Made by a program: the position numbers and the translations under genes. Of a stretch of DNA of 64,000 nt, positions 4,451-44,442 are shown in pieces. The notes beneath the pieces are model-generated. The model had not been told where the DNA came from and searched no databases. It was given only the letters and a program-made list of their open reading frames with translations. The number at the start of each line of letters is the position of its first letter. The stretch's first letter is position 1. This DNA is from Allosphingosinicella sp. Lineage in GTDB: Bacteria; Pseudomonadota; Alphaproteobacteria; Sphingomonadales; Sphingomonadaceae. The DNA is taken from NCBI GenBank assembly GCA_049590095.1, contig JBAWCC010000047.1, forward strand, positions 1,988 through 65,987, given 5' to 3'.

Positions 4451-4509
4451 CCTCAGGACCCGTTCATTCCCGCTCGACTAACAAACTTGCGACTTTTCAG
4501 GAGATTAGC

Positions 4510-5065: not shown

Positions 5066-5186
5066 CACCGGCCTTTCGGCCGGGATCAGGCGAATTCGCG
5101 CTCACAGGCCTAGGCTTTGCGACCCCGCGGCAGTTCCTCGGTTTCCAGCGGCCAGCTCGGGCATCTGATCGCCACGCTTCAGTGAT

Positions 5187-24274: not shown

Positions 24275-27200
24275 CTACTGGGAGAGGATGGCCTCGATCC
24301 GCTTGAGATGGGTCAGGTATTCGACGTGGTAGGAAAGATCGCGCGCGCGGAGCAGCAGGGTGCGGGCTTCCGGCAGGTCGAGCTTGGACATAGCGGTGCC
24401 GAGCAGGGTCATGGCGCCGATCTTGCGAAGCTCCATGTCGTGGCGCGTGGCGATCTGCATGGCCGCCTGGGCGGATGAGGCGGCGGCGCGATAATCGCCG
24501 AGCTGGAGCGCGAGCTCGCTCCGGAGCAGCGCGACCCGGCAGACGATCCGCGGCGCTCCCATGGTCCGGGCGTAGGCCTCGACCTCGGCCAGCTGATCTT
24601 CGTAGGTTCTTCGGCTGGCCAGCGGCAGAACCGGGCCCGGACGAGCTATCTCGATCGCGAGCCCGGCAAGATGGGCGAGGTGCCGTATGTCCTCGTGCCC
24701 TCCCTTGGCGGCGAAACTCGCGGCCTGGTCCGCGAGCAATGCCGCCCGTTCCAAATTGGGCCCGCCGAGCCGCTGCAGGCATTCCGCCCACTGGACCGAG
24801 AAGATCGCCGCCGAACGATAGCGCCTGATCCGGATCAGCTCGGAGATCACGGCCTTATATTCGGCGTCGGCCGAGCGCTGGTCTCCCTGCAAATCGCGAA
24901 TCAGCGCCAGATAGCCTCGGGCGATGGCGCGCAGCGCTGGCGTTTCGTCGCTTTCGTCGCGGACCCGGCCAAGTATCTCCTTCGCCTCCCCAAGCCGTCC
25001 GCGCTCGATCTGGGCGATCGCGCGATTGACGCCGATGCGCGCCTGGAGCGCGCCCCAGCCGCGAGTCTCGATACGCTCGCGCGCGATTCGGCTGGCATGG
25101 ACGAGCAGCGCGACGGCGTCCGAGAACCGCCCCTGCGCAAGGCTGATCACTCCGCACTCGTTGAACAGCCAAACGATCTCCTCGGCATGGAAGGTGCCGC
25201 GGAAATCGAGCGGCCCTGCCCTAGTCAGGCGGGTGGCCAGCCGAAGCATCCAGCGGACGCGCAAGCGGTGGCTTTCGAAATAGCCGCTTTCGGGCGTCTC
25301 CAGCCCCTCATGCTCGTAGGTGCTGAAGCGGGAGACGACCCCGACCGAATAGATCGACCTCAAGGCTCCGTAAGCCGCCCGAAGGCGGGCGCTTCGGAGC
25401 TCGCGGGTCTGCTTGCCGTCCGTCGATCGGTCGAGACGCTGGGCGAGATCCAGATAGGGATCCGGCGAGCCGTGCGCCCGCTCGTCGAGCGCCTTCTCGA
25501 ACAGCGATAATTGGTCGATGAGGTTGCGGACCCGCCGGTGGCCCTCGGCCGTCGGACGCGGCAGGTCGTCGGGCTGAGTGGCGTAGAGCGACACGGTGAG
25601 CTGGTCGACCTGCGAATAGTCAATGTTGGGCGCCTTGAACTGAAGGAATATGTGGCGCCGGATCGCCTTGTGCGTGGCGTAGCGATGGCCGCGCAGCGAG
25701 TCGGCCTCGTCCTCGGGGCCCTTGGCCGCCACCCGGTAGACGAGGCAGCGCTGGACAAGCAGGTCCATCATCCTTTCGAGAATTTCCCTCGCCTCGTCGT
25801 CTTCCTCGCGCTCGGCGGTCGGCGCCGGCAGCTTCGCGACCACCCGCTGCAGGGCGGTGGCGATCTTCTCGATGCCGGTCAGCACCCGCAGCTCGACCGG
25901 CTGGCCGATCAGCGCCAGCGAGACCAGGATGTTCTCCTGAAGCTCGAACAGCAGCGCGGCCGGCACGCCGCTCAGCTCTTGCGTCCCAGGCACCGCGACC
26001 GCGAGCTTCTTGCCCAGAGCGGAAAACTCGTCCGAACAATAGTTTTCGAGGACAAGCTTAACGGCGATCTCGTCGCGCGTGTCCGGCGCGCGGCCCACGG
26101 TGTTGCGGCGAAGCCGCTCGACGAAATCGCGCACCGGATAGAGGTCGACCACATTCTCCGGCGTGCCGGGCAGCCTTCGGACGATCATGTCGTCGATCGC
26201 CGCGAGCACGACCGTCATCGCGTAGCGATTGTGGCCCACGGCCACGTCGATCATGTTGAAAAAAGTCCAGGCCTCAGGGCGGACCTTGACGGAGCCCTTG
26301 TCGAGTATCTCCTCGACGGACGCCCGCACCCGCGCGCCGCCATTTTGCCACGTCGTCCGGTTCGAGCCGAGATCCTTCTGATAGGCATTGAGGACCTCGA
26401 GCATCACCGCCTCAATCCCGGCTCCCGCAAGCCAGGCGCCGGAAGCGCGGGATTTCCCCGCTCCGGCGAGCCTCGCCTCGAAGGCGTCGCGAACGCCGAT
26501 CTGGAATTCGAGCACCGATTGGTCGGTGCCGAAGCGCAATCTCGTGGCGTCGGGATATGCGTCGTCCAATTCGTCCGCGAAGGTGACGCAGGCGTCATCG
26601 GAGGGCTTCAGACTTCCCAGGTGCGCGAGTGCGGCGGCGGTACGCGGAAAGAAGCGGACGGCTAGCGTGACCGGCCGCATCCGGTCCAGAAAATGGATAT
26701 ATGTATCGAGCCGGTCGCGCTCCTCACTGCTGATCTCGGCCTCGCGGCCGTCGGCGATGGCGGTCGCCGCCTCGTGGCCGAACGCGTGCTCCATGCGTCG
26801 CTGGAGGACAGTCGTCGCCTTCGCAGAAAGGCCGACGGGCCTCAGGAATCCGACGGTCCGCCCGTCTTCCCGTGCGGCCGCCTCGCGCAGCGTCGTCGGC
26901 AGATGCTTTTCGTTGACGAAGAAGATGAAGTCGATCGGGGCCTCGTCGTATTTCGACGAGGTCAGAATCTCGAACAGCCGACCGACCTGGGCATTCTTGC
27001 GCCCGCCCTCGCCGTCGAAGAAGACGCTGACATGGTTCGTGATGACGACCAGCCGCTCCACCTCGCTGGCCGGTTTGGGCCCGACGGCGTGCAGTCGCTC
27101 CAGGGCGTGCTCAAGCCGTCCAAGCCGGTCGCCCCGGAGCTTCTCGCACTCCTTCAGGAAGCGCTCGGACTCGCGGCCGGAGCCCGGCATCGTCCGTTCG

Positions 27201-29803
27201 AGGATCCAGGTCAGGCGATCGAAGGTCGAGATGACCTCGTGCGACAGGCCGAGATTGAAGAAGATCCTCGCAATCCCCTTGGTCGACACCGCGTCCGCAC
27301 GCCGGCCCGCGGGCGCTTTGACGAGCCCCAGCCACTCGCACAGCTGCGCAAATCGCCGCGGGGAGCGCATCGCCGCGAAAACGTGGCCCCTCCCCGTGCC
27401 TCTTTCCCCCAGCAGGTAGAAAATACGTCTGCCGATCTTGGGCGGACGGACGATCGGCTGGCGCGGTCGGCGATTCGGAAAAAGAGCCCGGATCGGACCG
27501 CACGGCCGGACCCCGCATTCGGAGCGCAGGGAATCGCGCAGCGTCTCCATGGCGGGCGACGGGGCGCCGACGAAGAAGCGGTCGCTGGCCGGCGCCGCCT
27601 CCTGCCGCGCCTCCGCGTGAACGGCCCCGGCGGCTTCGACGCCGGCTTCGCTGTCCAAGTCCCGCAACAGGGTGCGATGCCGCGTGTATTCGAGTCCGTC
27701 CGTACCGCCGAGCGGTGAGCACTCGCCATCGGGCTCGCGCGAATCCGGTTCGCTTCCCCAATCTTCCAGCCACTCGGTCCACCGCTTCGCCATGTGCGCG
27801 AGCCAGGCGGTCAGGAAGGTGGTCAGGATCACGCTCTTCATCCCGTCGTTCAGCGCTCTCAGCGCCGGCAGCAGGGATTTGGGCAGGTCGGGCTGCCTCG
27901 AGATCGAATCAATCTGCTTCAGATGGCGGATGATCGTTTTCAGAGCCTTGACGGCACTCCTTTCCCCTTCGACGTCTTTGAGATTCGCTTCCACCTCCAT
28001 CAGCTCGCTCGCCGTCACCATTACGCTGCCCGGCTTGGTCGGCGGATCTTTCAATGGAAGCTGGTCCGATTTCAGCCGGTCATATAGCCGCTGCTGAAAG
28101 GCGAGGAGTTTGGTCATGAAGGGTTCGGAACCGGCCGCGGCTACCGGGTTCACGGTTCGGTTGATATGGCCGTAATAGAGCTGGTAGACACCGTAGCGGC
28201 TCAGGTTCAGCCGCTGCCTCTCCCGGCGCTTCTCCTCGGGGTCCATCGCCGGGAGCACCGCCACCGCGGGCCGGTCGCATAGCCTCGACACGCCCTCGCT
28301 GAAGGCTCGCAGCGGCCTCAAAATGTCGGGCTCGCTCATGCCCAGGCCGACGAACAGCAGCGGATTGGCGGTGAAAATCAGCCGCATCGCGTCGTCGGCG
28401 CATCCGCTGGGATCGTCGTCGCGGGCGTAACGCTCGCGATAGTCGCGCTCGCTCAGCACCAGCCACGAGCCGGGAGTCTTCGCGCGACCGTGGAGGTGCA
28501 GGATCTGTGGCCGATGCTCGCGCGTGTCTGCGCCGTAATCGTAGAGGAAGGCGGCCGAGCCCGGCTCGTAGGCCATCACCTCGGCCCGTTCCGAGCTCGG
28601 CGTCATCAGCATGCTTCGCGATCGCGAGCTTTTCCCCGCCGGCGACGACGACGGGATTTCGCCTGCCAGTGGGGCCGTCTCCGTTAGCTCCTCGAAGCCG
28701 CGCGAGGCCAGCAGGCGGGTAATCTCGTCGTCATAATTGGTGGTGAGGAACCGCTTCACGTTGCATTCGTCGAGAAGCACCGCGAGTGGGTCGCGATGCC
28801 TCGGCATATCCGGCCGGGGAAGCGGCTTGACGGGCCGGACGGACGCCTCGGTCTGCTCTTCCTTCCTGGATTTGGCCGCCTGCCTCGCGCGTTGCTGCGC
28901 CTGTCGAAGAACCGAATCGAGCCGGGCCGGCGTGAGCAGGTGCAGCGCCGCCTCGACGACGTGGCGGGTATCGGGTCCATCCTCCGAAACGGAATTGAGC
29001 TGCTTGCGCAGCAGCGACCTCAACCCCTTCTCGGCAAGACCGCAACTTCTTGGCGGTGCCAGGTACTTTGCAACCTGCCGCCGAAATTTTTCGTCCTCGT
29101 AGATCAGGCGCGCGAGCCGGCTGGCGAACTCATCCGCAAACGGACTGAGCGGCTCCTCGACGGTGACGGGGAAGCGCAAGCTCCTTTGCAACTCCTTCAG
29201 GACAGCAACTGCCTCCGATTTTTTCCGTATCTCCAGCAACCGCCCGATCATCAGCTCGATACGCCCGCGCCCGTCCTTGATCTGCCACCGCAGGCGATCG
29301 CGGAGGGCGGCGGCGGCGCGCTTCGCCTCGCGCCGACTGTCGGCGTCACGATCGCCGAGCCGCTTCAGCTTCAGGCGGCGCAGAGCGACGAGGACGTTTT
29401 CGCAAGCCTCGAACCAGAAAGGTATCGAATCCGCATCTAACTTATCCTTGGGAAGGGCTCCGAGGACGCTCACCGCCGCGTTCAGGACAGGGTGCGCCTC
29501 CCGCCACTGTTTCGAGCCTCCGTGGGCCTTTTGCTCCTGCTCGACCGCCTCGTGGACCGCCGCGGCCGCGTTGCGGAGAAGCTCCTCCCAGGACGGCTGG
29601 CCATAGCCATTGCTCACTCCGGAGCCGACCACGGCGATCAGCCGGCGGCCGTTCAGCGCCCGGGCGAGCTGTGCGATGGCGTGACGCTCGAGCAACTTGA
29701 CGTCGAACGAGCCGAGCAGCCTTTGCTCCGCATAGACCCAGTCGTGGAGGACCTGGCCGGGCTCTTCGTTAGATATCTCGGCCGAAGCCGATGGTCCGGT
29801 CAC
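24275..29803 (-). CDS. giant cytoplasmic SIR2-like / degenerate P-loop NTPase-like / TPR protein (~1,842 aa)
   Basis: No signal peptide. SIR2_2-type motifs LIAVVGSGVSNGYGQPSWEELL, FLTTNYDDEI, ILHLHGRAKTPGSWLVLSERDY and LLFVGLGMSEPDIL. P-loop-like FYLLGERGTGRGH. Helical-repeat (TPR-like) C-terminal ~300 aa. GTG 29803 forms a GTGA overlap with the TpsA stop (longest ORF start is 29908). Confidence 0.75.
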   Translation of the reverse strand: MTGPSASAEISNEEPGQVLHDWVYAEQRLLGSFDVKLLERHAIAQLARALNGRRLIAVVGSGVSNGYGQPSWEELLRNAAAAVHEAVEQEQKAHGGSKQWREAHPVLNAAVSVLGALPKDKLDADSIPFWFEACENVLVALRRLKLKRLGDRDADSRREAKRAAAALRDRLRWQIKDGRGRIELMIGRLLEIRKKSEAVAVLKELQRSLRFPVTVEEPLSPFADEFASRLARLIYEDEKFRRQVAKYLAPPRSCGLAEKGLRSLLRKQLNSVSEDGPDTRHVVEAALHLLTPARLDSVLRQAQQRARQAAKSRKEEQTEASVRPVKPLPRPDMPRHRDPLAVLLDECNVKRFLTTNYDDEITRLLASRGFEELTETAPLAGEIPSSSPAGKSSRSRSMLMTPSSERAEVMAYEPGSAAFLYDYGADTREHRPQILHLHGRAKTPGSWLVLSERDYRERYARDDDPSGCADDAMRLIFTANPLLFVGLGMSEPDILRPLRAFSEGVSRLCDRPAVAVLPAMDPEEKRRERQRLNLSRYGVYQLYYGHINRTVNPVAAAGSEPFMTKLLAFQQRLYDRLKSDQLPLKDPPTKPGSVMVTASELMEVEANLKDVEGERSAVKALKTIIRHLKQIDSISRQPDLPKSLLPALRALNDGMKSVILTTFLTAWLAHMAKRWTEWLEDWGSEPDSREPDGECSPLGGTDGLEYTRHRTLLRDLDSEAGVEAAGAVHAEARQEAAPASDRFFVGAPSPAMETLRDSLRSECGVRPCGPIRALFPNRRPRQPIVRPPKIGRRIFYLLGERGTGRGHVFAAMRSPRRFAQLCEWLGLVKAPAGRRADAVSTKGIARIFFNLGLSHEVISTFDRLTWILERTMPGSGRESERFLKECEKLRGDRLGRLEHALERLHAVGPKPASEVERLVVITNHVSVFFDGEGGRKNAQVGRLFEILTSSKYDEAPIDFIFFVNEKHLPTTLREAAAREDGRTVGFLRPVGLSAKATTVLQRRMEHAFGHEAATAIADGREAEISSEERDRLDTYIHFLDRMRPVTLAVRFFPRTAAALAHLGSLKPSDDACVTFADELDDAYPDATRLRFGTDQSVLEFQIGVRDAFEARLAGAGKSRASGAWLAGAGIEAVMLEVLNAYQKDLGSNRTTWQNGGARVRASVEEILDKGSVKVRPEAWTFFNMIDVAVGHNRYAMTVVLAAIDDMIVRRLPGTPENVVDLYPVRDFVERLRRNTVGRAPDTRDEIAVKLVLENYCSDEFSALGKKLAVAVPGTQELSGVPAALLFELQENILVSLALIGQPVELRVLTGIEKIATALQRVVAKLPAPTAEREEDDEAREILERMMDLLVQRCLVYRVAAKGPEDEADSLRGHRYATHKAIRRHIFLQFKAPNIDYSQVDQLTVSLYATQPDDLPRPTAEGHRRVRNLIDQLSLFEKALDERAHGSPDPYLDLAQRLDRSTDGKQTRELRSARLRAAYGALRSIYSVGVVSRFSTYEHEGLETPESGYFESHRLRVRWMLRLATRLTRAGPLDFRGTFHAEEIVWLFNECGVISLAQGRFSDAVALLVHASRIARERIETRGWGALQARIGVNRAIAQIERGRLGEAKEILGRVRDESDETPALRAIARGYLALIRDLQGDQRSADAEYKAVISELIRIRRYRSAAIFSVQWAECLQRLGGPNLERAALLADQAASFAAKGGHEDIRHLAHLAGLAIEIARPGPVLPLASRRTYEDQLAEVEAYARTMGAPRIVCRVALLRSELALQLGDYRAAASSAQAAMQIATRHDMELRKIGAMTLLGTAMSKLDLPEARTLLLRARDLSYHVEYLTHLKRIEAILSQ

Positions 29804-32800
29804 CGGCAGCTCCCCGCAAGCGGCCTCGGATCGTTCGGAAACGGATAGGGGCCTCGCGCCCTTAGGCCCAGTTGGCTCACCAAGCCGTCGTTGCGGGTCC
29901 CCGCGCACTGACTAATGAGGATTCCGAAGGCGTCGACGAACGAAGTAACCAGCTCTTGCGTGCCTTCGCTGACGTCCTCGACGTCGCTGTCGAGGAGCAG
30001 GTCCCCATCCACCAGCAGCACGTTAGGGACGTCGGCGGATCGAATGAAGAAGCCGCTGGTGATCCGAACGTTGGCCCCGCCCGCCTGGCCCAAAGCGAGG
30101 ATCGTGGCGCCGTCGGAAATGATCGCCAGCGGCTCGCCGATGGTGATTCGGCCGCCGGTCAGCGACGACGACGAGGTCGTGATCAGAACCGGGTTGAGGC
30201 GGCCGCGAAGGATCATGAGGCCGTCGCTCGGAAGTCGGATATTGATGTCGCCGGCCGGTCCCACGGCGTTGGTCGTCAGCACCGCGCCGTCGGTCAGTAT
30301 GACTCGGTCGGCGGCGATATTGATCGAGCCCGCCGCCCCCCCACCCAGCGCCGCCGCCTCGATTCCCGACCGCGTTCCGTCCGCCAGAAACGTCCGGGCC
30401 GAGACGTTGATGTTACCGCCGTTGCTCGGGGTGCCGGTGGTGGCGGAAGCGATCAGAACCCCGCCGTCGAGCAATTCCAACCGGTCGACGTCGATCGTCA
30501 GGGTGCCGCCGTTCGGGGCCGCGCCCGTGCTCGTGGAGATGGCCGATCGCCCCGTCGAGTCGAACCCGGAAACCCGCAGGGTCGCGTCCGGACCGACGAT
30601 CCGCACGTTGCCGGCAGCGCTGGCCGTACCGCTTATGTCGGACTGGATTCGGCTGAAGCCGGTAACCGTGCCGAGACGGCCGATCGCCACGTCGACCGCT
30701 CCGGCCGCGCCGGACCCGCTCGACGAGGTGGAGATGGTCGACCGGTCTTCGAGCAGCAGGTCCCGACGCGCGTTGACCAGGATCGCGCCGGCATCGCCCG
30801 TGCTCGCCGGGCGCGCGACGTCGGGATCGCCGCCGATGCTCTCCGAGCGCACCGATGCATTGCGCAAGGTGACGTCGGCGGCGTCGATCGCGACACGCCC
30901 GGCGTCGCCGCTCGCCGGCGCCCCCCCCTGCGGTGAGACCGTCTGCGAGATGATGTTGGCGCGATCGATGAGAAGGCCGGCCTGGGCAGTGACGGCGATC
31001 GGCCCGCTCGATTGCGAGCCGGTCGTCTCCGCAGCGATCCGGGTGCGTCGCGGCGCGTCTCCGGTGGGCTGGTCGCGCTGCCCGAGCAACTCGATCTCGC
31101 GGCCGCTGATGCTGATGCCGGCCGGCGGCGCCGCCCCCTGAGGGCCGGTCGAGCTCGACACGATCTGGATCAGGCCGCCGGGCGATCCGTCCGGAAGGGT
31201 GCCCGTCGACAGCTGGTCCGACGGCAGGAAGCCGATCGCGATCTGGTCCGCCGCCTCGATGCGGATGCCGCCGGTGCCGGCCGACAGACCCAGCGCGTTA
31301 GAGGAGATGTTGGAATTCGACAGCGTGATATCGTCGGCCGATCGGATCGTGATCGAGCCGGCTCGGCCCGAGGCCCCGGTAACCGGCGAGGGGTCGGTTC
31401 CGGTCGCCGTCGTGCTGATCAGCGTGCGCGAGGCGGCGATCGAGCCCTGGGTCGAGGTCAGCGAGACGTCGCCGCCGCTTCCGCGTCCCGTGGCAAGGCT
31501 CTCGATTCGGAATCCGGCGTCCATGGTGATCGACCCGGCCTGCAGGCGCAGCGCCCCTCCCGGCGCATCGCCTTCGGTGCGGCTGATCAAATTGGCCGGA
31601 CTCACGGGGGCCAGCAAGGACTGGCCGGTCAGGACCATCGCCCCGGAGACAGTGACTTCGATGTCCCCCGCCCGACCGGCGGCGACCGCGGTGCTCGCGA
31701 GCCGTCCCCCGGTCATCTGGAACGTGGCCGCGTCGATCCTAAGATTGCCGGCGCGGCCGCCGGCGTCGGAAGCGGTGTCGAAGATGGCATTGCTCAACCT
31801 CACCGTGCCGACATCGATCCTGATGTCGCCCGCATCGGCGGCGCCGGTCCGCCCGCTGATCGAGGCGTTGGCCATGTCCAAAGTGGCGGCCGGCCCGACG
31901 ATCTCGATTCTCGAATGCGTAAAGTCGAGGGGGATCTCGCCATTGTACAGGGCGCCGACCTGCGCTCCCCGGGTCGACGAGGGAGCGCCGCGCATCTGCA
32001 GCAGGTCCCGGACCTGCAGGCTGAGGAGATAAGGCGCTCCGGCGCCGTCACCCAGTATGCCGATATGGCTCGGGCCATCCATGATAAGGCGCGTAGCCCG
32101 AAGGAAGATGTCGCCGCCATCGATGCCGCCGCCGGGGGAGCCGAAGCCGCCGGCTCGGATCGAGCTGGAATCGAAATTGCGCGGATCGCTGACCACGCGC
32201 AGGTCGCCGGCCGACAGCGCGATCGCGGCGCGGTCCCCGCGCAAGTCGGTTGCCGGGCTCCAGACCGCTATTCGCGACTCGGAGATGAGGATCTGGCCGG
32301 CGGCGTCCGGCAGGGCTTGGCGGGGGTCGACCGCAATCTGGGCCGCGCCGCCGCCGACTGCCGCCATCCGAACCATCGTGTCCTCGAACAGGAGGTCGGC
32401 GCGGTCGAGGTTGATATTGCGGGCGGTAAAATGGGCGGCATCGCCGATGCCGGTCCGGATGCGAGCGCCGCCGGTCACGAAATTGCCCAGGAATTCGATG
32501 TTGCCGCTGCCGCCGCCGGAGAGGAAGCCGAAGCTGGCGGGCGAGGCCATGGCGAAGGTCGAGCCGTCGGCCGAGGCCGCGCGCAGCTGAGTCCCGTCGA
32601 CGAAGTTCAGCGAGTCCGCGGTGGAGGCGTAGAAGGCGCGCGGAACGTCGACCCGCGCGTCGGGGCCGAAGACGATGCCGGCAGGATTGATGAAGTAGAA
32701 ATCGGCATTGGCGAAGGCGGTCGAATCGATCCGGCCGTAGAGGTCCGAAGGGTCGCCGCCGGTGACCCGGTTGATTACGTTTCGGACGTCCGCCGCCCCG

Positions 32801-33135
32801 GGGCCGAACCAGCGTGCGGTGTCGCTAGCGCCGAGGTCGAAGCGGTTGAAGCTGTGGAACAGGTTTTGCGAGGGATTGGAGGCCGGACCGCTATAGCGGC
32901 CGCCGCCGATCGTATAGGTCCCCGCCGGTCCCGGCGGCGGCGCGATGGTGGTGCCGGTGGTCAATTGCGGGGCGGTATCGGGGATGATGGCGGTCGGCGG
33001 CTGGGCCGGCGCGGGGAAGGCGGCGAGCGCGAGGGCGAGTGCGATGAAGCTGGCCCTGGAGCGGCAGGATGTGGAGCAGCACCTCTTGAGCGTTCTTTTC
33101 TCGACGCTCCGCGCTGCATCGCCGTTACTCCTCAT
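29800..33135 (-). CDS. TpsA-type exoprotein (filamentous-haemagglutinin-like, 1,111 aa)
   Basis: Extended signal peptide (..SFIALALALAAFPAPAQ). TPS secretion-domain motifs NLFHSFNRFDL, VINRVTGG and FYFINPAGIVFG. The remainder is Gly/Ala/Ser/Asp-rich beta-helix-type repeats. No VENN/CT-toxin boundary seen. Confidence 0.85.
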   Translation of the reverse strand: MRSNGDAARSVEKRTLKRCCSTSCRSRASFIALALALAAFPAPAQPPTAIIPDTAPQLTTGTTIAPPPGPAGTYTIGGGRYSGPASNPSQNLFHSFNRFDLGASDTARWFGPGAADVRNVINRVTGGDPSDLYGRIDSTAFANADFYFINPAGIVFGPDARVDVPRAFYASTADSLNFVDGTQLRAASADGSTFAMASPASFGFLSGGGSGNIEFLGNFVTGGARIRTGIGDAAHFTARNINLDRADLLFEDTMVRMAAVGGGAAQIAVDPRQALPDAAGQILISESRIAVWSPATDLRGDRAAIALSAGDLRVVSDPRNFDSSSIRAGGFGSPGGGIDGGDIFLRATRLIMDGPSHIGILGDGAGAPYLLSLQVRDLLQMRGAPSSTRGAQVGALYNGEIPLDFTHSRIEIVGPAATLDMANASISGRTGAADAGDIRIDVGTVRLSNAIFDTASDAGGRAGNLRIDAATFQMTGGRLASTAVAAGRAGDIEVTVSGAMVLTGQSLLAPVSPANLISRTEGDAPGGALRLQAGSITMDAGFRIESLATGRGSGGDVSLTSTQGSIAASRTLISTTATGTDPSPVTGASGRAGSITIRSADDITLSNSNISSNALGLSAGTGGIRIEAADQIAIGFLPSDQLSTGTLPDGSPGGLIQIVSSSTGPQGAAPPAGISISGREIELLGQRDQPTGDAPRRTRIAAETTGSQSSGPIAVTAQAGLLIDRANIISQTVSPQGGAPASGDAGRVAIDAADVTLRNASVRSESIGGDPDVARPASTGDAGAILVNARRDLLLEDRSTISTSSSGSGAAGAVDVAIGRLGTVTGFSRIQSDISGTASAAGNVRIVGPDATLRVSGFDSTGRSAISTSTGAAPNGGTLTIDVDRLELLDGGVLIASATTGTPSNGGNINVSARTFLADGTRSGIEAAALGGGAAGSINIAADRVILTDGAVLTTNAVGPAGDINIRLPSDGLMILRGRLNPVLITTSSSSLTGGRITIGEPLAIISDGATILALGQAGGANVRITSGFFIRSADVPNVLLVDGDLLLDSDVEDVSEGTQELVTSFVDAFGILISQCAGTRNDGLVSQLGLRARGPYPFPNDPRPLAGSCR

Positions 33136-33991
33136 CGGGCATCTCCCGCTCGGCCTGCGCAGCCCTTTGGTTCCGAGCTTCGACCGCAGCCGGCGTCATT
33201 CGGTCACATGCGGCTTGGCGCTGGCCAGTGATGTAATTCCCCTCGGCGGCTTTGAGCTCGTTTCGCAATTCGTCCCTGAAGGCCGCGATTAAGGCTTCTT
33301 CGCCCAACCGCTTGTCTTCCGGATCCTCGGACCAAGGCCACCAGGAGCGAGAACGACTATTGCTATCGAGCTGAGCGGCGCATCGCTCCGCCATCTGGCC
33401 GATATCAGTTCCATAAGCCCGGTCACTGAATATGGCCTGCTGTCTTGCAAAGTAGGGGCCGAAGTTCCTGGCAAGATCAATGGCCTTCTGCCCGAAAAGC
33501 AGACAACTGGTTTTCTCGTTGCACACACCAGATTCCACGCAATTATTTACTGAGTCATAGAAGTCGTTGAAACTTGAAAAGTCTTCTATAAGGCCTCTGT
33601 AGTGATCAGATGGATATATTATTTTTAGATAAAACTCATAACGCTGGTCTGCCGACAACGAGTTAGGATCTATCATATCGAGCTCTTGACTAGCGCCGCC
33701 AGTAGATCTTTGCACAAACAACGCTTTGCACAGCAGGGCATCATCTACTCGAGAGCGTAGAGCCTCCATCGTTGGTGATGTCCATTTCTTCTGAAGTTCC
33801 ATCGCCTTGTCGCTGGTCCATTGATCATAGGCGACCCAACCTGCGTAAGCGAGAATTGCGGCCTGGAGGAGCGTAGCAATGGCTACCCAGCCCTCCGCGC
33901 TTTGCCGGATCAGCCATGCGGGCCGGCCCATCACCCATTGGAGCGCGCGGCCGAGCCATTTTCGCACCCGGATCAACCATTTTCGGTTCAT
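33125..33991 (-). CDS. single-pass membrane protein, unknown function (288 aa)
   Basis: ATG 33991 lies 3 nt after the upstream stop, and the 3' end overlaps the TpsA start by 11 nt. One TM helix (WVAIATLLQAAILAYAGWVAY). Contains a clearly AT-richer stretch (~33500-33760). No family recognised. Confidence 0.6.
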   Translation of the reverse strand: MNRKWLIRVRKWLGRALQWVMGRPAWLIRQSAEGWVAIATLLQAAILAYAGWVAYDQWTSDKAMELQKKWTSPTMEALRSRVDDALLCKALFVQRSTGGASQELDMIDPNSLSADQRYEFYLKIIYPSDHYRGLIEDFSSFNDFYDSVNNCVESGVCNEKTSCLLFGQKAIDLARNFGPYFARQQAIFSDRAYGTDIGQMAERCAAQLDSNSRSRSWWPWSEDPEDKRLGEEALIAAFRDELRNELKAAEGNYITGQRQAACDRMTPAAVEARNQRAAQAEREMPDEE

Positions 33992-33994
33992 GAC

Positions 33995-34375
33995 CTAGGG
34001 CCGCCTGATGGAACCGCAGTGCCTCTCGATTAATGAGAGCAGCGCCGGAGGAATTATCCCGCGCTTGAGCAAATCGCGGATGCATTTAGCTGTTCTAGAT
34101 GAGAGGTAGATGTCGGCACCGGGTTTCCTATCAGGATCGTTCGGATCGAGCGTGACGGGATCGCAGTCCAGGGTGACTTCACGGATACCCGGTGACTTTT
34201 CTTCATCAGCGGCCGTGCGAGCCATCCACGCCTCGAAGCATTCGCGGTCCTTGGCCTCGGGCATCAAAAGCTCATTGCCATCGGTCGAGAGGACGGCGCG
34301 TTGCGCCCGGCCTGCCTCAGCGGATCCAAGGCAAAGACATGCCGCCAAGGCGATCCTGCCAATCAATTTCATCAT
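33995..34375 (-). CDS. small secreted 4-Cys protein, unknown function (~126 aa)
   Basis: ATG 34375/34372 is preceded by GAGGAGGAGG. Signal peptide MMKLIGRIALAACLCLGSAEA. Four Cys in the mature part. An alternative GTG at 34405 would overlap the TpsB stop. Confidence 0.6.
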   Translation of the reverse strand: MMKLIGRIALAACLCLGSAEAGRAQRAVLSTDGNELLMPEAKDRECFEAWMARTAADEEKSPGIREVTLDCDPVTLDPNDPDRKPGADIYLSSRTAKCIRDLLKRGIIPPALLSLIERHCGSIRRP

Positions 34376-34401
34376 AGCCTCCTCCTCGAGGTGGTACGCA
34401 T

Positions 34402-36426
34402 TCACAATCGGAGCGGCCGCAGCGTCACGCCGAAGTGCAGGCCGTCATTCACCAGTGCGGGACCGGGGCCGGCAAGATCCCTGCCCAGACGCAATCCATA
34501 ATCAACGCGGACGGTGATCGCTTGCGATGGGATCCAGGCGAGACCCGCGCCGATGGCTCCGAGCTCGTCGTCCCGGCGGGTCGCCGGATTGAGATTCGAA
34601 GCCCAGGCGGCGTCAGCGAACAATGTGACTCGGAAGCGCTGCGGGTCGAAGCCGCCACCTTGGCCGAACGGCGCCCGCTCGCGGCCCAGGCTGAAATAGC
34701 GACTCAGCTCGACTGAGCCGACCAGCCCGCGATCGACCAGCAGAGCCGCCTGGGGGTAGCCGCGCACGGAATTCGGTCCGCCGACGGGCAGCCTTTCCGA
34801 CGTGTAGAGCAGTTGGTTCGACCATTGCCCCGACAGACGGGCCGTCAACAACAACTCCTTCCAGCGCAGCTGGCGGGAATAACCGATCTGGCCGCTGATC
34901 AGGACGAAGTGGCGGGACGGGGTCGCGAGTCCGGCGATGTCCGTCGCACTCCCGTCCAAGCCGAAGGACAAGCGGAGGCGCCCACCGAGCGTCCAGCCGC
35001 GTTCTCCGCCGGGAGTCGTGCGGCCGCGTTGAAGCCAGTCCGCTGACGCCCGGATCGCGGTGACGTGGGAACGTCCGTCGACGGACCCGGGCGCGAAGGA
35101 AAAGGGCTCGCCGAGCAGGAAGGATTGCGAGCTTCGATGGGAGAGGGTGAGCCCCAGCGTGAGGTCGCGCGCGCTCGCCCATCCGACCGGCGCATCGCCA
35201 ATGCGGCGCGCCGCGAGCCGGCAGGACTCGATGCCATCGCCGGCCGTGGCGCGCCGGGCTTCGCGCAGCAACGGCTCGCCGAACAACGGCGTCAGCGGGC
35301 AGCGTATCGCCCCGTAATAGAGAGATCCCTCGAAGCCCCAGCCTCGCGAGCGAATGTCGAGCGGGCGAAGCGCCGGATCGACGATCTCGGCTTCGTTGAA
35401 GTCTGCGGCGAGCCGCGCCGACCATCGCGGCCGAAGCGCTACGAGCAGGGATCCGGCGCCGTCCAGAGCGCCTTCCGTCGCGCCGGCATCCGCCGAGAAG
35501 AGAAAGCCGGCAGGCCCACGCAGCGTCAGACCCGCGAATGCGCGGATGCTTCCCGTCGATGGCGGCCGGTCATTGGCTACGCCGATCTCGGCTTCGATCC
35601 ACGGCTTGGTGACCACGAATGGCGGCGGGGTGGGCGCGTCGTCGGCGGTCCGGTCGCTCGGCAGCGCTATAGCCTGCCCGCCCAGGCCGTCACTCGCGTC
35701 GCGAGGGGAGACCAGCTCTGCTTTGCCTCTGCCTTCCGTGCCGGGACGGGGCCTCAGGCCCATGTTGACGTTGTCGATCCACGGGTCATTGTCATCGGCG
35801 AGTCGTCTGAAATCCCGCTCCAGCAGATAGACGTTGAAAGGCGCCTTCGGATTGCAGCCCTGCATAAGCCGCCGCCGCACGTAAGGGTACGAACCGGAAG
35901 GAAGACCGCGACCTCTGGCCTCGCGAGCAATTGCGGAAGCATCCAAAGGGCGATCGAACGCGCAAGCTCTGTCTTCGCCGTCGACCAGCCGGCCTTCGAC
36001 GGGCTCGATATGCAACTTTTCCCCCTCCTCCTTCAGAAGGATCCCGGAATTGACATAGCCATTTTCGTAAAAGGCTGTGTTGGCCTTCTCGATGTTCGCG
36101 TAGAGCTGCGGCAGGCGCTCGCGGTCGATCGCGAAGTCGGTCTCCTTTCCGGTAACGTCGGCGCCCGTGCCGTTGGCGAGACAATCGCGGAGCCAGTCGA
36201 CGTTCAGAAACCGCCGGCCGCTGGGCTTGCAGGGGTCGGCCGGCTTGGCCCCTCCGCGCCTCGGCGGCCGGATCATGACCGGGAATACGGTCTGCCAGCG
36301 CGATTTGGGCGGCAAGACGACCATTGCCTGAGCCGATTTTCGGGCGGCGGGCTCGCCAGCAACCTGGGCCGGCGCGCACAGAGCGACCCAGGCCAGAAGT
36401 GCCGCGAGGCCGGCCCGGCTCGACAT
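34402..36426 (-). CDS. TpsB (ShlB/FhaC/HecB-family) Omp85-type outer-membrane transporter
   Basis: Signal peptide MSSRAGLAALLAWVALCAPAQVAG. POTRA-like N-terminal region (LHIEPVEGRLVD). Conserved loop-6 motif GGPNSVRGYP and beta-barrel-type alternating C-terminal region. Confidence 0.8.
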   Translation of the reverse strand: MSSRAGLAALLAWVALCAPAQVAGEPAARKSAQAMVVLPPKSRWQTVFPVMIRPPRRGGAKPADPCKPSGRRFLNVDWLRDCLANGTGADVTGKETDFAIDRERLPQLYANIEKANTAFYENGYVNSGILLKEEGEKLHIEPVEGRLVDGEDRACAFDRPLDASAIAREARGRGLPSGSYPYVRRRLMQGCNPKAPFNVYLLERDFRRLADDNDPWIDNVNMGLRPRPGTEGRGKAELVSPRDASDGLGGQAIALPSDRTADDAPTPPPFVVTKPWIEAEIGVANDRPPSTGSIRAFAGLTLRGPAGFLFSADAGATEGALDGAGSLLVALRPRWSARLAADFNEAEIVDPALRPLDIRSRGWGFEGSLYYGAIRCPLTPLFGEPLLREARRATAGDGIESCRLAARRIGDAPVGWASARDLTLGLTLSHRSSQSFLLGEPFSFAPGSVDGRSHVTAIRASADWLQRGRTTPGGERGWTLGGRLRLSFGLDGSATDIAGLATPSRHFVLISGQIGYSRQLRWKELLLTARLSGQWSNQLLYTSERLPVGGPNSVRGYPQAALLVDRGLVGSVELSRYFSLGRERAPFGQGGGFDPQRFRVTLFADAAWASNLNPATRRDDELGAIGAGLAWIPSQAITVRVDYGLRLGRDLAGPGPALVNDGLHFGVTLRPLRL

Positions 36427-36455
36427 CTGCGTGATCGGGCTCGGCCTCCCCCCCC

Positions 36456-38261
36456 TCACCGCCAATTTCCGATCACCACGAACACGCCCCAATTGGCCGG
36501 GTAGCTTAGATCATTGGACTGACGCCGCGTCGTCTCGGTGCCCGCATAAGCAAGCTGCACTCGCCTCAGCGCCTGAGCCGCGGATTGCGCGGAGTCCGAA
36601 TCGTAATAGAGGCTCAGGAAGTCGGAATTCCTGTCCAGCTTGCTGTTGAAATAGCTGCTTGCTGTCTTGGCTTGTACCGGCGCGAGGGCCCCCACCGTAC
36701 TCAAGGCCCCGCCCCGCAGCGCCGCGCCGGCGAGGCCAAGGTCCCCGGCGCCTCCGACCGCACCCTCGCAAGCGAGGAAAATCAGCAGATCCAGGCCGCG
36801 AGACTTGCGCCGCCCCTCGCGCAACCATTCCTCGATCCGGCTCACCGGCATCCTGATCGACCCCGAGCCGGTTTCCGGATGAATCTGAAAATAACTGGTA
36901 CCGGGCAGATATTGCGCATGAGTAGCGAGCAACAGGGTCGAAAAATCGCCTCGCCTCAACGCCGTCTGCAATCCCTCGCGCGTGAACGGCCTCAGCCGTA
37001 CGGAGCCCACCTCGTCCCCCGCCGGAAGGGAAGCGATGGCGAGACCGGCCGAGCCGGAAAGTGCGGGCTCGACGATCCAAGGCGAAATATCCTCTTCTTT
37101 GGAGACCGCTGGCACGAAGCCGGAAAGGGCGGCTATTCCCAAGCCGCCGAGCATCAAGCCGCCGCGTACTCCCGGTCTCGGCGAGGGTCGAACATAAGCG
37201 AGGCCGGGACCCACGGCGATCGCGACCCGCCGGACAAGGTAGTCGGGCTCGCCGGAAGGGAGATCCGGTTTGCCGTGAAGGAGGGCCCAGGGAACATTTC
37301 GAAGCACAGGATCGGGAAAGAATATCAGGGTGGGGACCTTCTCTACCTCCGCTCCGGTCGAGTCCGTCCTGGGTGGGTCCGGCGGAATGAAACGCCGATT
37401 CAAAGGCTGGATGAGCAGTTCATAGAGGTTGTGCGCATCTGCCGAACCCCAGTCGGCTCGTGGACCGCTCAAGGTCGGATTGGAAAATTCGCGTGCGGCG
37501 AGAGGGAGACGCAGGAACAACTGTTTGGCGATGGGGGAAAGTATCGAGGCGCCGCTACCCTCACCCGCTCCCAGCAGCGTCCAGCCGTCTCCGGCTGTGG
37601 CCCTTCCTGCCCTGTCCGGTTTTCTCCCGACCAGCAAATAGGTGCGGCGGCTGCCGACGATCGGATAGACGATCGTCTCTCCGTCCAGCAGATGCTTGGG
37701 CGCCAGGGAGACCTGGAGCGGTTCGCACGAATCCGCGAGAACGAGGTCGATCTGCGCGCGCCGCGCCGTCTCGCCGAGATCGAGCAGCGAGGCGATCAGC
37801 CGCCGGTCCGTCGGTGTGGAACCGTCGGCGACCCGCTCGTAGGCGAGAGCGTCGGCGGCGGCCTGGAAAATCGGCAGAAGGCGAAGGGTGAACAGGTCGG
37901 CGTCGCGGCCGGCCGAATCCGCCGACCTCGTCCCCCGATCCTGCGCGAGCACGAGCTTGACGGTCTCGAACGCCTTGAGGACATGTCGCGGGTTCGGCTT
38001 CCCGCCCTCACCACCGAGCTCGGCCAGCTTCATCCAGGCCTGCGCCGTCGCGTAGGTCGGCCCGTCGTTCGCCGCTTGGGCCAGCAGGCGCTCGCATTGC
38101 AACTGACTCGCGCAGACACTCGCGGCAGGCGTTGCGGACGCTTGGCCAAGCGCTAGGTCTGCCTGCCCCGGCGCGGCGACGGCCGCGGGCCAACAGAGCC
38201 CCGACCCTGTCGCGGCAAGCAGAAGCGACAAGACTAGCTTCAGTTTCCCACCAAGTACCAC
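36456..38261 (-). CDS. secreted CHAT-domain (caspase-like) protease
   Basis: Signal peptide (KLKLVLSLLLAATGSGLCWPAAVAAP). C-terminal CHAT-type dyad context with His in FSTLLLATHAQ and Cys in LDLLIFLACEGA. First gene of the operon; GTG start. Confidence 0.7.
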   Translation of the reverse strand: MVLGGKLKLVLSLLLAATGSGLCWPAAVAAPGQADLALGQASATPAASVCASQLQCERLLAQAANDGPTYATAQAWMKLAELGGEGGKPNPRHVLKAFETVKLVLAQDRGTRSADSAGRDADLFTLRLLPIFQAAADALAYERVADGSTPTDRRLIASLLDLGETARRAQIDLVLADSCEPLQVSLAPKHLLDGETIVYPIVGSRRTYLLVGRKPDRAGRATAGDGWTLLGAGEGSGASILSPIAKQLFLRLPLAAREFSNPTLSGPRADWGSADAHNLYELLIQPLNRRFIPPDPPRTDSTGAEVEKVPTLIFFPDPVLRNVPWALLHGKPDLPSGEPDYLVRRVAIAVGPGLAYVRPSPRPGVRGGLMLGGLGIAALSGFVPAVSKEEDISPWIVEPALSGSAGLAIASLPAGDEVGSVRLRPFTREGLQTALRRGDFSTLLLATHAQYLPGTSYFQIHPETGSGSIRMPVSRIEEWLREGRRKSRGLDLLIFLACEGAVGGAGDLGLAGAALRGGALSTVGALAPVQAKTASSYFNSKLDRNSDFLSLYYDSDSAQSAAQALRRVQLAYAGTETTRRQSNDLSYPANWGVFVVIGNWR

Positions 38262-42465: not shown

Positions 42466-42470
42466 CCGCC

Positions 42471-43859: not shown

Positions 43860-44282
43860 CGGCTCCTCGGACGGCAGCAAGTGCGTCGTGCCTAGACGCA
43901 TCCATCGGCTCTGACCACGTTGATGTTGGGCTTGACGCCTCCGATCTGCCTTTCGATCGAACTTTTCGGTTTGTGTCGGGCAGTAGCAATTTTCAGTATT
44001 TATCGCTGAGATGTGTCAAATAATATGGCTAAGGCTTACATTCAGTCTCCATATGTTTTAAGATGAATTATCACGCATCCCCAGTCTTTCAGCCAAAATG
44101 TGCCTAGAGTTAATTTGGACAACGCAGCTATACTGCGACTGCGTTTGCTACATGCTGGAAGCTCGCCGTGATCGGCGTTTCGACGAGGGGCGAGGCACGC
44201 ACGACATGCCGTCGCATAGGCACTTACACGCGTCCGACGCGCATGATATGGGATTTACAGAATCCTGCCACGGAGAGACACA

Positions 44283-44438: not shown

Positions 44439-44442
44439 CGGC

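Follow-up and report, generated by a model that had tools for sequence, protein, structure and literature searches.

We found that a gene on the reverse strand of the window (the whole 64,000-nucleotide stretch of the Allosphingosinicella sp. contig analyzed here) encodes a giant protein of three main parts. According to its motifs and structure models, these are a SIR2 domain with a large helical insert, a STAND/AAA+-like module with eroded ATPase motifs and a TPR region, which is presumed to be the sensor. By analogy, the giant seems to be a cytoplasmic, self-contained NLR-like NADase that is encoded by one gene and whose nucleotide switch has eroded, and we give this reading a probability of about 0.55. 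The protein belongs to a large and undescribed family, which resembles the antiviral SIR2-STAND proteins yet is separate from them. In the literature, we found no description of a large family uniting an intact SIR2 NADase, a TPR sensor and a NOD-like core in which almost all members lack the Mg-coordinating and acidic catalytic residues.

The size of the family was revealed by an exhaustive representative search, which gave 528 representatives (50% identity) at E ≤ 1e-3. Every member examined had the SIR2, central and TPR architecture. A word-indexed homologue search with the central-module alignment returned P0017 alone, and a genome-collection scan with the single giant protein returned one locus, that of Asticcacaulis, which was already known. 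About 1,000 central residues of the family are invisible to Pfam. Among approximately 145-155 representatives with at most 50% mutual identity, the residues G95/G97, N391, D393, H473, G837, G839 and G841 were invariant or nearly so. To judge from this alignment, the conserved glycines and catalytic residues of the giant are not a matter of chance.

Gene structure and translation start

24275..29803, reverse strand: gene of the SIR2 / NOD-like / TPR giant, 1,842 aa, with a GTG start at 29803 and the stop codon at 24275-24277 (from the ORF list and translation)

Residue numbers of the giant are given in the frame of ORF 24275..29908 (reverse strand). In this numbering, all the motif positions that an earlier sequence-only reading had claimed for the giant were found where it had placed them. 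Translation most likely begins at the GTG at 29803, as suggested by its sequence context. It overlaps the stop codon of the upstream gene as GTGA, and a Shine-Dalgarno-like site, GGGGAG, lies 6 nt upstream. The identical 4-nt overlap with the upstream gene was observed in the two closest homologous loci (P0001 and P0002). The ORF start at 29908 was dropped: it would place 109 nt of the reading frame within the upstream gene, and no homologue supports it. Starting from the GTG at 29803, the protein has 1,842 aa, and therefore the numbering used here runs 35 residues ahead of the real one. Neither a signal peptide nor a transmembrane helix was found in the giant, and an NCBIfam search with the whole protein gave zero matches.

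The SIR2 domain and its helical insert

29588..29638, reverse strand: SIR2 strand 1 and glycine-rich NAD loop, IAVVGSGVSNGYGQPSW (ORF aa 91-107; predicted strand at aa 91-94)
28754..29587, reverse strand: 278-aa all-helical insert within the SIR2 fold (ORF aa 108-385), between strand 1 and TTNYD
28109..28753, reverse strand: remaining SIR2 catalytic domain (ORF aa 386-600) with TTNYD (N391, D393), HLHG (H473) and LLFVGLGMSEPD

The first of these segments carries GSGVS at aa 95-99 (nt 29612-29626) and PSW at aa 105-107 (nt 29588-29596). The third carries TTNYDDE at aa 389-395 (nt 28724-28744), HLHG at aa 471-474 (nt 28487-28498) and LLFVGLGMSEPD at aa 517-528 (nt 28325-28360), and Pfam SIR2_2 matched it at aa 386-568 with E = 3.2e-15, above the gathering score. 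Conservation extended over both segments. The strand 1 and GxG loop IAVVGSGVS was conserved (G95 in 131 of 137 sequences, G97 and W107 in all 137), and N391, D393, H473 and G474 were invariant in the 145 relatives aligned. From its motifs, the SIR2 domain looks catalytically competent.

The AF2 model of the SIR2 domain had a pLDDT of 81.8. All 50 Foldseek matches listed for this model were SIR2 defense proteins, at modest E-values. The best was ThsA (8bto; E = 4.3e-3, probability 1.00), and the top matches were ThsA, KomC/HAM-SIR2, DSR2, SPARSA or SIR2-HerA. Thus, the motifs model as one SIR2/Rossmann fold, in agreement with the sequence-only reading. A PADLOC search at E ≤ 1 gave only weak matches of the giant, to LmuA, ThsA, Dsr1, SIR2 and PDC-S25. 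The LmuA, ThsA and generic SIR2 models matched the SIR2 N-terminus and the Dsr1 model matched aa 464-530. Membership in DSR1 was dropped, because this match was weak and confined to the SIR2 domain. We take PADLOC 2.0 to contain an Avs5 model; no sequence relationship of the giant to Avs5 was detected, the PADLOC matches being limited to weak SIR2 and other hits.

The insert at aa 108-385 was predicted to be 71% helix and 0% strand, and R, K, E and L made up 41.7% of it, compared with 33.0% in the rest of the protein. The impression of an R/K/E/L-rich, helical segment was therefore correct. In the AF2 model it formed about a dozen helices, mostly of high pLDDT, and Pfam gave zero matches to it. 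A large insertion within the SIR2 domain had also been proposed, and this holds for the whole family. The segment aligned to aa 108-385 spans 213-432 aa in 24 homologues, and the distance from GSG to TTNYD is 194-617 aa (median 332) among 110 representatives. In sirtuins, strand 1 and the strand of TTNYD are separated by a module that is variable and either helical or zinc-containing. The insert lies at this position. On that reading, the SIR2 fold is not abnormally split, and the insert is the normal variable module, greatly enlarged. The description of the fold as split is accurate in that a large helical insert interrupts it.

ThsA, DSR1, DSR2, KomC/HAM-SIR2 and SIR2-HerA are the closest structural matches to this domain and share its catalytic Asn and His. 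They differ from the giant in having no NOD-like module. Their glycine loop is also separated from the catalytic Asn by approximately 100 residues, whereas the distance is 296 in the giant and 194-617 in its family. The catalytic Asn is N112 in ThsA and N133 in DSR2. In EfAvs5, it is N141 (PMC11897194).

The central module and the C-terminal region

27467..28108, reverse strand: linker or pre-NBD region (ORF aa 601-814) with conserved W713, W717, R743 and D776
26819..27466, reverse strand: P-loop-NTPase-like domain (ORF aa 815-1030), from the AF2 model and Foldseek
27383..27415, reverse strand: degenerate Walker A, LLGERGTGRGH (aa 832-842), with Arg840 for Lys and Gly841 for Ser/Thr
27035..27052, reverse strand: strand at the Walker B position, LVVITN (aa 953-958; a strand in the model), without an acidic residue
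26993..26998, reverse strand: near-invariant Lys971-Asn972 in the loop after the Walker-B-position strand
26909..26935, reverse strand: strand 4, IDFIFFVNE (aa 992-1000), with D993 at its start and E1000 at the sensor-1 position
25289..26818, reverse strand: helical and winged-helix-like domains (aa 1031-1540), including IGQPV (aa 1334-1338) and the RYATH motif with His1413
24278..25288, reverse strand: C-terminal TPR-type repeat region, presumed sensor (aa 1541-1877)

No family match was found for the linker region, aa 601-814. It was modeled from aa 690 on, and its W713, W717, R743 and D776 are invariant alignment columns.

The AF2 model of the central module was built from a shallow alignment of 32 sequences and had a pLDDT of 83.9 and a pTM of 0.89. 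It begins with a strand, a glycine loop and a helix. Five strands were modeled in the P-loop-like domain, at aa 828-834, 880-885, 953-958, 992-999 and 1019-1022. The top Foldseek matches were ORC2 (1w5t), Mpa, ORC/Cdc6, ClpX, Vps4, p97 and the NLR NRC3. Among the matches listed, ORC/Cdc6 and AAA+ proteins predominated overwhelmingly, plus one NLR, with probabilities of 0.6-0.93, E-values of about 8e-3 to 1e-1 (none below 1e-3) and TMq of 0.11-0.16. Of the interpretations that had been offered for the module, a divergent STAND or pseudo-NTPase is the one favored by this fold search, at weak E-values. Sequence methods gave no such signal: Pfam searches with the central segments of 15 members at E ≤ 10 had zero relevant matches, and an HMMER profile of the module found nothing relevant among PDB sequences. 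When family profiles of 15 and about 110 sequences were compared by hhalign with MalT, represented by E. coli MalT or by a MalT alignment of low diversity (Neff about 2), the P-loop alone was aligned (pairwise P of 0.009-0.35, non-significant). It was the best single segment and in register with the GYGKTT of MalT, again without significance.

The canonical Walker A, GxxGxGK[ST], is absent from the window protein, which reads G-E-R-G-T-G-R-G. A scan of the protein for [AG]xxxxGK[ST] was empty. Across 167 family proteins the same pattern occurred 18 times, compared with 12.7 expected from shuffled sequences, at scattered and non-homologous positions. Therefore, no canonical Walker A was overlooked; a copy elsewhere in the giant was dropped as a candidate, and LLGERGTGRGH, with its GRG, stands as it had been described. 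The canonical Walker B, hhhhD[DE], is also absent in the window, which reads LVVITNH. Position 958 is N in 103, S in 33, G in 8, D in 7 and H in 3 (the top five residues, n = 160), so that N, S or G account for 144 of the 160. Position 959 is A, G, H or S, and R952 precedes the strand in 158/160. The claim that the module lacks canonical Walker motifs is thus borne out by residues 840 (R), 841 (G) and 958 (N).

Position 840 was variable. It is Lys in 117, Arg in 32, Ser in 2, Met in 1 and Gln in 1 (the top five residues, n = 155), and it tolerates Ala as well. The lack of the lysine is correct for the window protein and its own cluster of 16 members (15 Arg and 1 Met), but it does not describe the family, in which Lys prevails. 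Likewise, in the homologue alignment the insert is family-wide and the GRG variant is not, while Gly841 was found in 155/155 and R836 in 144/155. Arg840 recurs in several other clusters. From these distributions, Arg840 is a derived state of the window's clade. What sets the whole family apart is position 841, where Ser/Thr has given way to an invariant Gly, together with the Asn, Ser or Gly found at the Walker B position. The basic P-loop residue is almost always retained, and some nucleotide binding may persist.

Besides the P-loop, K971 was conserved in 157/161, N972 in 150/161 and D993 in 161/161, and position 1000 was E in 101 and D in 23 of 160. Among the polar residues of the module, conservation is highest at R836, K/R840, N885, E891, N958, K971, N972, E1000 and H1413. 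The last of these lies directly after a predicted wing hairpin: the model has a helix at 1369-1386, hairpin strands at 1390-1393 and 1409-1412 and then a helix. STAND and NB-ARC proteins have a GxP motif (Leipe et al. 2004) and a winged-helix His, that of the MHD motif. Candidate counterparts in the family were conserved (G1335 in 149, P1337 in 160 and H1413 in 162 of 166), as was R1409 (160 of 166); their likeness to GxP and MHD is a resemblance between motifs, not the product of an alignment. At the C-terminus, Pfam TPR_19 matched aa 1590-1661 with E = 0.002, under the curated cut-off, and homologues matched TPR_12 and TPR_MalT.

Gene neighborhood

29800..33135, reverse strand: gene of a TpsA-like exoprotein, upstream of the giant and in one operon with it, carrying a TPS secretion domain (Pfam TPS, E = 2.3e-25)
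33125..38261, reverse strand: rest of the six-gene block, encoding a 288-aa membrane protein, a 136-aa secreted protein, a ShlB/FhaC-type TpsB transporter and a secreted CHAT protease

Pfam matches in the block included ShlB (5.3e-11) and CHAT (5.8e-21), and all five partner proteins carry signal peptides or a transmembrane helix, as read from their translations. The stop of the TpsA-like gene overlaps the start of the giant, and this arrangement is repeated beside P0001 and P0002. The order CHAT, TpsB, 136 aa, 288 aa, TpsA, SIR2 giant was kept in the window and at locus L006, which encodes P0002. At L005, which encodes P0001, the contig starts inside the upstream gene, so that only this gene and the 4-nt overlap are visible. 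The downstream flanks of the giant differ in all three places. The CHAT/TPS context was restricted to a subclade at ≥65% identity. It seems, from the overlapping genes, that the giant is translationally coupled to a CHAT/two-partner-secretion operon in this subclade only. In seven more distant relatives, the gene stands alone in an unrelated context, without TPS or CHAT neighbors, and some of these genes adjoin integrase or transposase fragments.

A complete Septu system (PtuA, E = 1e-136; PtuB, E = 1.4e-85) lies about 3.4 kb from the operon. Most of the homologue neighborhoods examined were not obvious defense islands. In two metagenome scans, no further copies of the 288-aa operon protein were found. 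A conserved small partner gene was also considered and dropped, the two genes upstream of P0005 being unrelated to the 136-aa and 288-aa genes of the window. The envelope and secreted proteins sharing the operon in the subclade are not explained by a stand-alone immune sensor.

Comparison with known systems

In EfAvs5, a SIR2-STAND protein, Walker A (K379/S380) and Walker B (D426) are canonical, and defense depends on both; the protein needs ATP binding, binds ATP-Mg and shows no ATPase activity (PMC11897194). The central module of the giant had been proposed to differ from characterized SIR2-STAND proteins, and against these canonical motifs it does: the family has an invariant Gly for Ser/Thr and Asn/Ser for the Walker B acid, with Arg for Lys in the window's clade. 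The giant also has the SIR2 insert of about 280 aa and a TPR sensor. In logic, however, it is most like Avs5, and oligomerization leading to NAD+ depletion is likely to be common to both.

In motif degeneracy, the NOD of the giant resembles the iSTAND and iSTAND2 modules, as far as these can be compared by the descriptions in the available portions of Kaur et al. 2020 and 2021. There, they are inactive modules of STAND origin whose NTP-binding motifs have eroded; effector or signaling domains are fused to their N-termini, and they are proposed to be sensing or assembly components (PMC7159879, PMC8195603). Each is the third component of a MoxR-vWA ternary system, and the domain at the N-terminus is TIR, DRHyd, caspase, trypsin or EAD (PMC7159879, PMC8195603). 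SIR2 is not among the N-terminal domains listed in these portions, and the term "SIR2" does not occur in the 2020 paper (PMC7159879, PMC8195603). A further difference is that no MoxR or vWA genes were annotated near the giant, either in the window or in ten homologue loci.

The order of domains recalls SAMD9/SAMD9L, which the available parts of the sources describe as very large antiviral proteins with a SIR2-like domain, a STAND-like P-loop NTPase and TPRs in succession (PMC5445408, PMC12680541). SAMD9 is described there with extra SAM, AlbA and OB domains and from animals and actinomycetes (PMC5445408). The likeness is an architectural analogy only, and no sequence similarity was detected. 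MalT-type STAND regulators are similar in that a NOD is followed by a MalT-like TPR/SUPR sensor, and distant family members match PF17874 (TPR_MalT). Their P-loop and that of the giant fall in register in the non-significant alignment described above. MalT differs in its canonical Walker A and in its output, which is DNA binding and not a SIR2 effector.

Proposed mechanism

From the order of its domains, the conservation of its motifs, the similarity of its folds and the genes around it, all observed here, we propose by analogy that the giant would respond to a trigger, oligomerize, act as an NADase and serve in defense. The parts would be arranged as an intact SIR2 domain, in which the position of a small module has grown into a helical domain of about 280 aa, then a NOD-like core (a domain with the P-loop fold, joined to helical domains and a winged helix) and then the TPR array. 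By analogy with Avs5, ThsA and DSR2, the TPR array would recognize the trigger, probably a phage component. Recognition would release the autoinhibited NOD, which would drive oligomerization and so activate the SIR2 domain. NAD+ would then be depleted and growth of the infected cell would stop. The helical insert is placed where it might gate the NAD pocket or mediate SIR2-SIR2 contacts.

As the Mg2+-coordinating Ser/Thr and the Walker B acid are lost and the basic residue is kept, as Lys or Arg interchangeably, the NOD is most likely non-hydrolyzing. To judge from its motifs, it is probably not an ATP-hydrolyzing switch; it may only bind a nucleotide or another anion, or it may be a pure assembly scaffold.

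Alternative explanations

The conserved E1000, K971 and N972 could together make up an active site of a non-canonical kind, which would count against an eroded switch. The central module would then still be a working nucleotide switch, rewired so that K/R840 binds phosphate, E1000 (perhaps with K971/N972) replaces the Walker B acid and the Walker A Ser/Thr, and H1413 contacts the nucleotide like the MHD His of NB-ARC proteins. Several of the most conserved polar residues do lie in the P-loop or at C-terminal strand ends in the model, where P-loop active sites sit. About a quarter of the relatives read GKG[TS] at the P-loop. The P-loops of adenylate kinases read GxxGxGKG[T], and hence nucleotide binding can be compatible with a Gly that follows the Lys. 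Nevertheless, Ser, Met, Gln and Ala also occur at position 840, position 999/1000 varies, and we know of no precedent for a STAND with such an arrangement. We consider a rewired switch somewhat unlikely. It is also very improbable, in our view, that the module is not derived from a P-loop NTPase at all, with the RGxGxG loop and the AAA+/ORC-like matches being convergent or an artefact of a model from a shallow alignment. No sequence or profile method links the module to an NTPase family, and the Foldseek values (no E below 1e-3, TMq 0.11-0.16) agree with this. However, the model is confident (pLDDT 83.9, pTM 0.89) and the matches listed are overwhelmingly of one fold class. The strand/Gly-loop/helix, the R-hhhhh strand, the next hydrophobic strand and the winged helix with its His also follow the NB-ARC/STAND order, and the best hhalign segment, although non-significant, is the P-loop in register with MalT.

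The gene context raises another explanation, namely that the giant is not an immune sensor but the cytoplasmic regulatory or effector arm of the CHAT/two-partner-secretion operon, for example an NAD-dependent modifier or checkpoint acting on TpsA export or processing. The six-gene block with its 4-nt TpsA-giant overlap, kept in the window and at L006, speaks for this, as do the differing downstream flanks in the window, L005 and L006. This context is nevertheless limited to the ≥65%-identity subclade, with the seven distant relatives solitary, and the giant lacks the signal peptide or transmembrane helix of the five partners; such a role is quite unlikely. A bolder idea, which we regard as unlikely, is that the family is a distinct class of bacterial NLR-like receptors in which the pocket is no longer an ATP-hydrolyzing switch, the insert of about 200-600 aa is a gate and the subclade is wired to CHAT/TPS. 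In such a class, assembly may be independent of nucleotide, or the pocket may bind another phosphate-bearing ligand (NAD+, ADP-ribose or a nucleotide signal), coupling SIR2 chemistry to the state of the NOD. If it is true, the subclade wiring would connect a cytoplasmic NADase with a system of the envelope.

Significance

SIR2-STAND proteins (Avs5) and inactive STAND modules were already known, each separately. If the family of single-gene NLR-like proteins described here is immune, it would offer a natural way to ask whether a canonical nucleotide switch is necessary for NLR-like assembly. An indication in this direction already comes from EfAvs5, which binds ATP without hydrolyzing it. The enlarged helical module in the SIR2 fold is a candidate autoinhibition or oligomerization element that is directly dissectable, and the tie of the subclade to a CHAT/two-partner-secretion operon could reveal a new system composition.

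The gene, its start and its SIR2 domain

The giant SIR2/central module/TPR protein lies in an ORF, 24275..29908 (-), which translates without interruption and whose numbering we use for residues. The six motifs quoted in the sequence-only reading were each confirmed at their residues and nucleotides. A gene start at the 5′ end of the ORF (29908) was not borne out, and the first 35 codons overlap the upstream gene. A GTG at 29803 overlaps the stop codon of that gene (GTGA), with GGGGAG 6 nt upstream, and a 4-nt overlap of this kind also joins each of the two closest homologues to its own upstream gene. This GTG is most likely the real start, and the sole supported one; the giant therefore most likely has 1,842 aa.

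Pfam SIR2_2 matched aa 386-568, and the N-termini of the PADLOC models LmuA, ThsA and generic SIR2 matched aa 76-152. A confident structural model (aa 36-620; 32 sequences; pLDDT 81.8, pTM 0.82) placed strand 1 (IAVV) and the glycine loop ahead of about a dozen helices, which are followed by the TTNYD strand and the remaining Rossmann sheet. All 50 PDB matches listed by Foldseek were defence sirtuins (ThsA, KomC/HAM-SIR2, DSR2, SPARSA and SIR2-HerA), the best with E 4.3e-3 and probability 1.00. The N-terminal motifs thus formed one SIR2 fold, as had been supposed, and the contrary outcome set out beforehand, a failure to model as such a fold, did not occur. Residues N391, D393 and H473 were invariant in 145/145 relatives, which argues for an active enzyme.

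An enlarged helical module

The segment from GSGVS..PSW to TTNYDDE (278 residues) had been called Arg/Lys/Glu/Leu-rich and helical. Both composition and prediction agreed: these residues made up 41.7% of it, compared with 33.0% of the remaining protein, and 71% helix and no strand were predicted. In 24 homologues, the segment aligned to aa 108-385 of the giant was 213-432 aa long. GSG and TTNYD were 194-617 residues apart (median 332) in 110 representatives; comparatively, defence sirtuins have only about 100 residues at this position. Judging from these alignments, the helical insert is a trait of the whole family. Few of its positions are conserved (F166, D212, P312 and R315, plus D373/P374 at its end).

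Sirtuins carry a variable helical or zinc module where the insert sits. On this reading, the insert is that normal module, enlarged two- to six-fold. The claim of a split SIR2 fold with a large insertion thus holds for the insertion, which is helical and family-wide, but "split" was an overstatement. The insert may gate the NAD pocket or make SIR2-SIR2 contacts. The figure of about 100 residues for defence sirtuins follows from their catalytic Asn, N112 in ThsA and N133 in DSR2. In EfAvs5 it is N141 (PMC11897194).

The central module

Searches of Pfam, NCBIfam and PDB sequences gave no match to the central module, even for 15 members at E<=10. Its model (aa 690-1540; pLDDT 83.9, pTM 0.89) was confident and comprised the following elements.

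Elements of the modelled central module (residues)
828-834, strand, followed by RGTGRG loop and helix
880-885, strand, then three helices
953-958, strand
992-999, strand
1019-1022, strand, then helical domains
1369-1423, helix/hairpin/helix element

Among the Foldseek matches listed, ORC/Cdc6 and AAA+ proteins were overwhelmingly represented, including Aeropyrum ORC2 (1w5t, E 7.8e-3, probability 0.89), Mpa (probability 0.93), Drosophila ORC/Cdc6, ClpX, Vps4 and p97; one NLR, NRC3, was also listed. The scores were weak, none below 1e-3, and the fold class was consistent. In a profile-profile comparison with MalT, the best single alignment was the strand/P-loop/helix segment, with GxG[RK]G aligned to GYGKTT, without significance. 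Our interpretation is a NOD of STAND/ORC/AAA+ type that has diverged strongly; its place among the STAND proteins is putative.

The giant has no canonical Walker A, as had been noticed, and its relatives have no conserved one either. Among 167 family proteins, the pattern [AG]xxxxGK[ST] matched 18 times at scattered positions, compared with 12.7 times after shuffling. Motif positions were counted in about 155-166 representatives each. The family P-loop is [AG]-x-R-G-x-G-[KR]-G, with G837, G839 and G841 invariant and R836 present in 144/155. Position 840 is Lys in 117/155 and Arg in 32/155, occasionally Ser, Met, Gln or Ala. In the giant's own cluster it is Arg in 15/16 and Met in 1/16, and Arg is sporadic in other clusters. 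The missing lysine is therefore a derived, clade-level Lys-to-Arg change and does not define the family. Thus, of the two features proposed for an alignment check, the insert proved family-wide; in GRG, both Gly residues (839 and 841) are invariant and Arg840 is clade-level. The repeated Lys/Arg exchange suggests that the constraint at 840 is on positive charge, not on a catalytic lysine.

Family-wide, Gly replaces the Walker A Ser/Thr that coordinates Mg2+, and the Walker B acid is absent; at the end of its strand, which a near-invariant R952 precedes, stands Asn (103), Ser (33), Gly (8) or Asp (7). The sensor-1 position (1000) is acidic (Glu 101/160, Asp 23/160). Other near-invariant residues are K971 (157/161), N972 (150/161), D993 (161/161), G1335/P1337 and H1413 (162/166). 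The layout recalls that of NB-ARC proteins: "AFFNLSFS" is presumably RNBS-A, and we take "R-hLhVhN" to stand in the place of kinase-2 ("KRhLhVLDD") and "IDFIhhxxE" in that of RNBS-B ("hhhTTR").

The motif sequences point to a central module that no longer hydrolyses NTP canonically, although binding of some ligand with a phosphate group may persist. As a possible alternative, the active site has been rewired. K971/N972 and D993 (window 26993-26998 and 26909-26935 (-)) are more strictly conserved than the basic residue of the P-loop. K971 might be a pocket lysine that has changed its place; D993 and R952, which open two consecutive strands, might be paired in a structural salt bridge.

Genomic neighborhood

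The giant is the last gene of a six-gene block on the minus strand.

The five genes upstream of the giant
36456-38261 (-), CHAT protease, secreted, first gene of the block
34402-36492 (-), ShlB/FhaC-type TpsB transporter
(-), 136-aa secreted protein
(-), 288-aa membrane protein
29800-33135 (-), TPS-domain exoprotein, directly upstream of the giant

The first five products each have a signal peptide or TM helix; the giant lacks both. This envelope block spans 29800-38261 (-) in the window and 509-8915 at L006 (the locus of homologue P0002, 65% identity); the corresponding stretch at L005 (that of P0001, 74% identity) is 3-3155. L006 has the same six-gene order and 4-nt overlap. The L005 contig begins inside the upstream gene, and it shows only that gene and the 4-nt overlap. 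The downstream flanks differ among the three loci. In both the window and L006, the envelope block and the cytoplasmic giant are coupled translationally. At <=47% identity, seven relatives stand alone in unrelated neighborhoods, without the envelope block, and two metagenome scans revealed no further copies of it. Since these distant relatives are solitary, the giant would be a self-sufficient unit, and its coupling to the two-partner-secretion/CHAT operon an addition of this subclade. Integrase or transposase fragments adjoin some of the seven. In a single instance (P0029, L012 4982-10652), the gene immediately upstream, in the same orientation as the SIR2 giant, encodes an NrtR-type regulator (NUDIX + WHD_NrtR); such proteins regulate NAD metabolism.

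Some 3.4 kb past the CHAT gene, at 41671-43901 (-), is a complete Septu system, which gives modest support to a defence-island setting. The three-gene run between the two, at 38826-41124 (-), may be another defence candidate.

Genes beyond the CHAT operon
38826-39413 (-), AAA_28 P-loop protein, three-gene run
39410-39991 (-), DEDDh/RNase_T exonuclease, three-gene run; also matches PADLOC candidate PDC-S48, E 1.9e-20
within 38826-41124 (-), 377-aa protein without family match
41671-42465 (-), PtuB of Septu, PADLOC E 1.4e-85
42471-43901 (-), PtuA of Septu, PADLOC E 1e-136
44098-45579 (+), radical SAM protein adjoining Septu, Pfam E 2.6e-15

The radical SAM protein weakly matched prokaryotic viperin models (pVip, E 9.8e-12), which leaves two readings, a viperin-like defence gene and an ordinary enzyme of the radical SAM class. 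Another very long ORF, 8696-14635 (-), 1,979 aa, matched Cu-oxidase_2 (multicopper oxidase, E 7.3e-6). None of the long plus-strand ORFs that overlap it matched Pfam; the true gene is therefore probably the one on the minus strand.

Comparison with known systems

In the SIR2-STAND protein EfAvs5, the canonical K379/S380 and D426 are required for defence, and the protein binds ATP-Mg but has no ATPase activity (PMC11897194). The giant's family differs in its invariant Gly for Ser/Thr and its lost Walker B acid, in line with the earlier view that it departs from described SIR2-STAND proteins. Inactive STAND modules (iSTAND, iSTAND2 and a third kind) occur in MoxR-vWA and other conflict systems, and the available text of the two sources gives their N-termini as TIR, caspase, trypsin or EAD; unlike in the giant, SIR2 is not listed there (PMC7159879, PMC8195603). 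No MoxR or vWA genes were found among the annotated neighbors of the giant and the relatives examined. SAMD9/9L have the SIR2-like/P-loop/TPR order in common with the giant, which is an architectural analogy only. By analogy, the giant would work most like Avs5 and resemble iSTANDs in degeneracy; by the membership criteria tested, it falls outside both.

Overall, the initial observation was confirmed and its interpretation borne out in part. With a probability slightly above one half, we regard the giant as an NLR-like SIR2 NADase encoded by a single gene, whose NOD is eroded and probably does not hydrolyse NTP and whose SIR2 fold contains an enlarged helical module.

A word-indexed search returned 31 relatives of 1,600-2,170 aa, all with SIR2_2 and several with TPR_12 or MalT-like TPR. 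A profile covering the central 751 residues was run exhaustively with HMMER over 1.84 billion representatives (clusters at 50% identity); 528 proteins reached E<=1e-3, and 264 reached E<=1e-30. Sampled distant members had the same SIR2/central/TPR layout. The source names were only "SIR2 family protein", "tetratricopeptide repeat protein" and "hypothetical protein", and our literature search found no paper describing the family. The family is thus large and uncharacterised, and it is of interest mainly because it offers a natural test of the need for a canonical nucleotide switch in NLR-like assembly.
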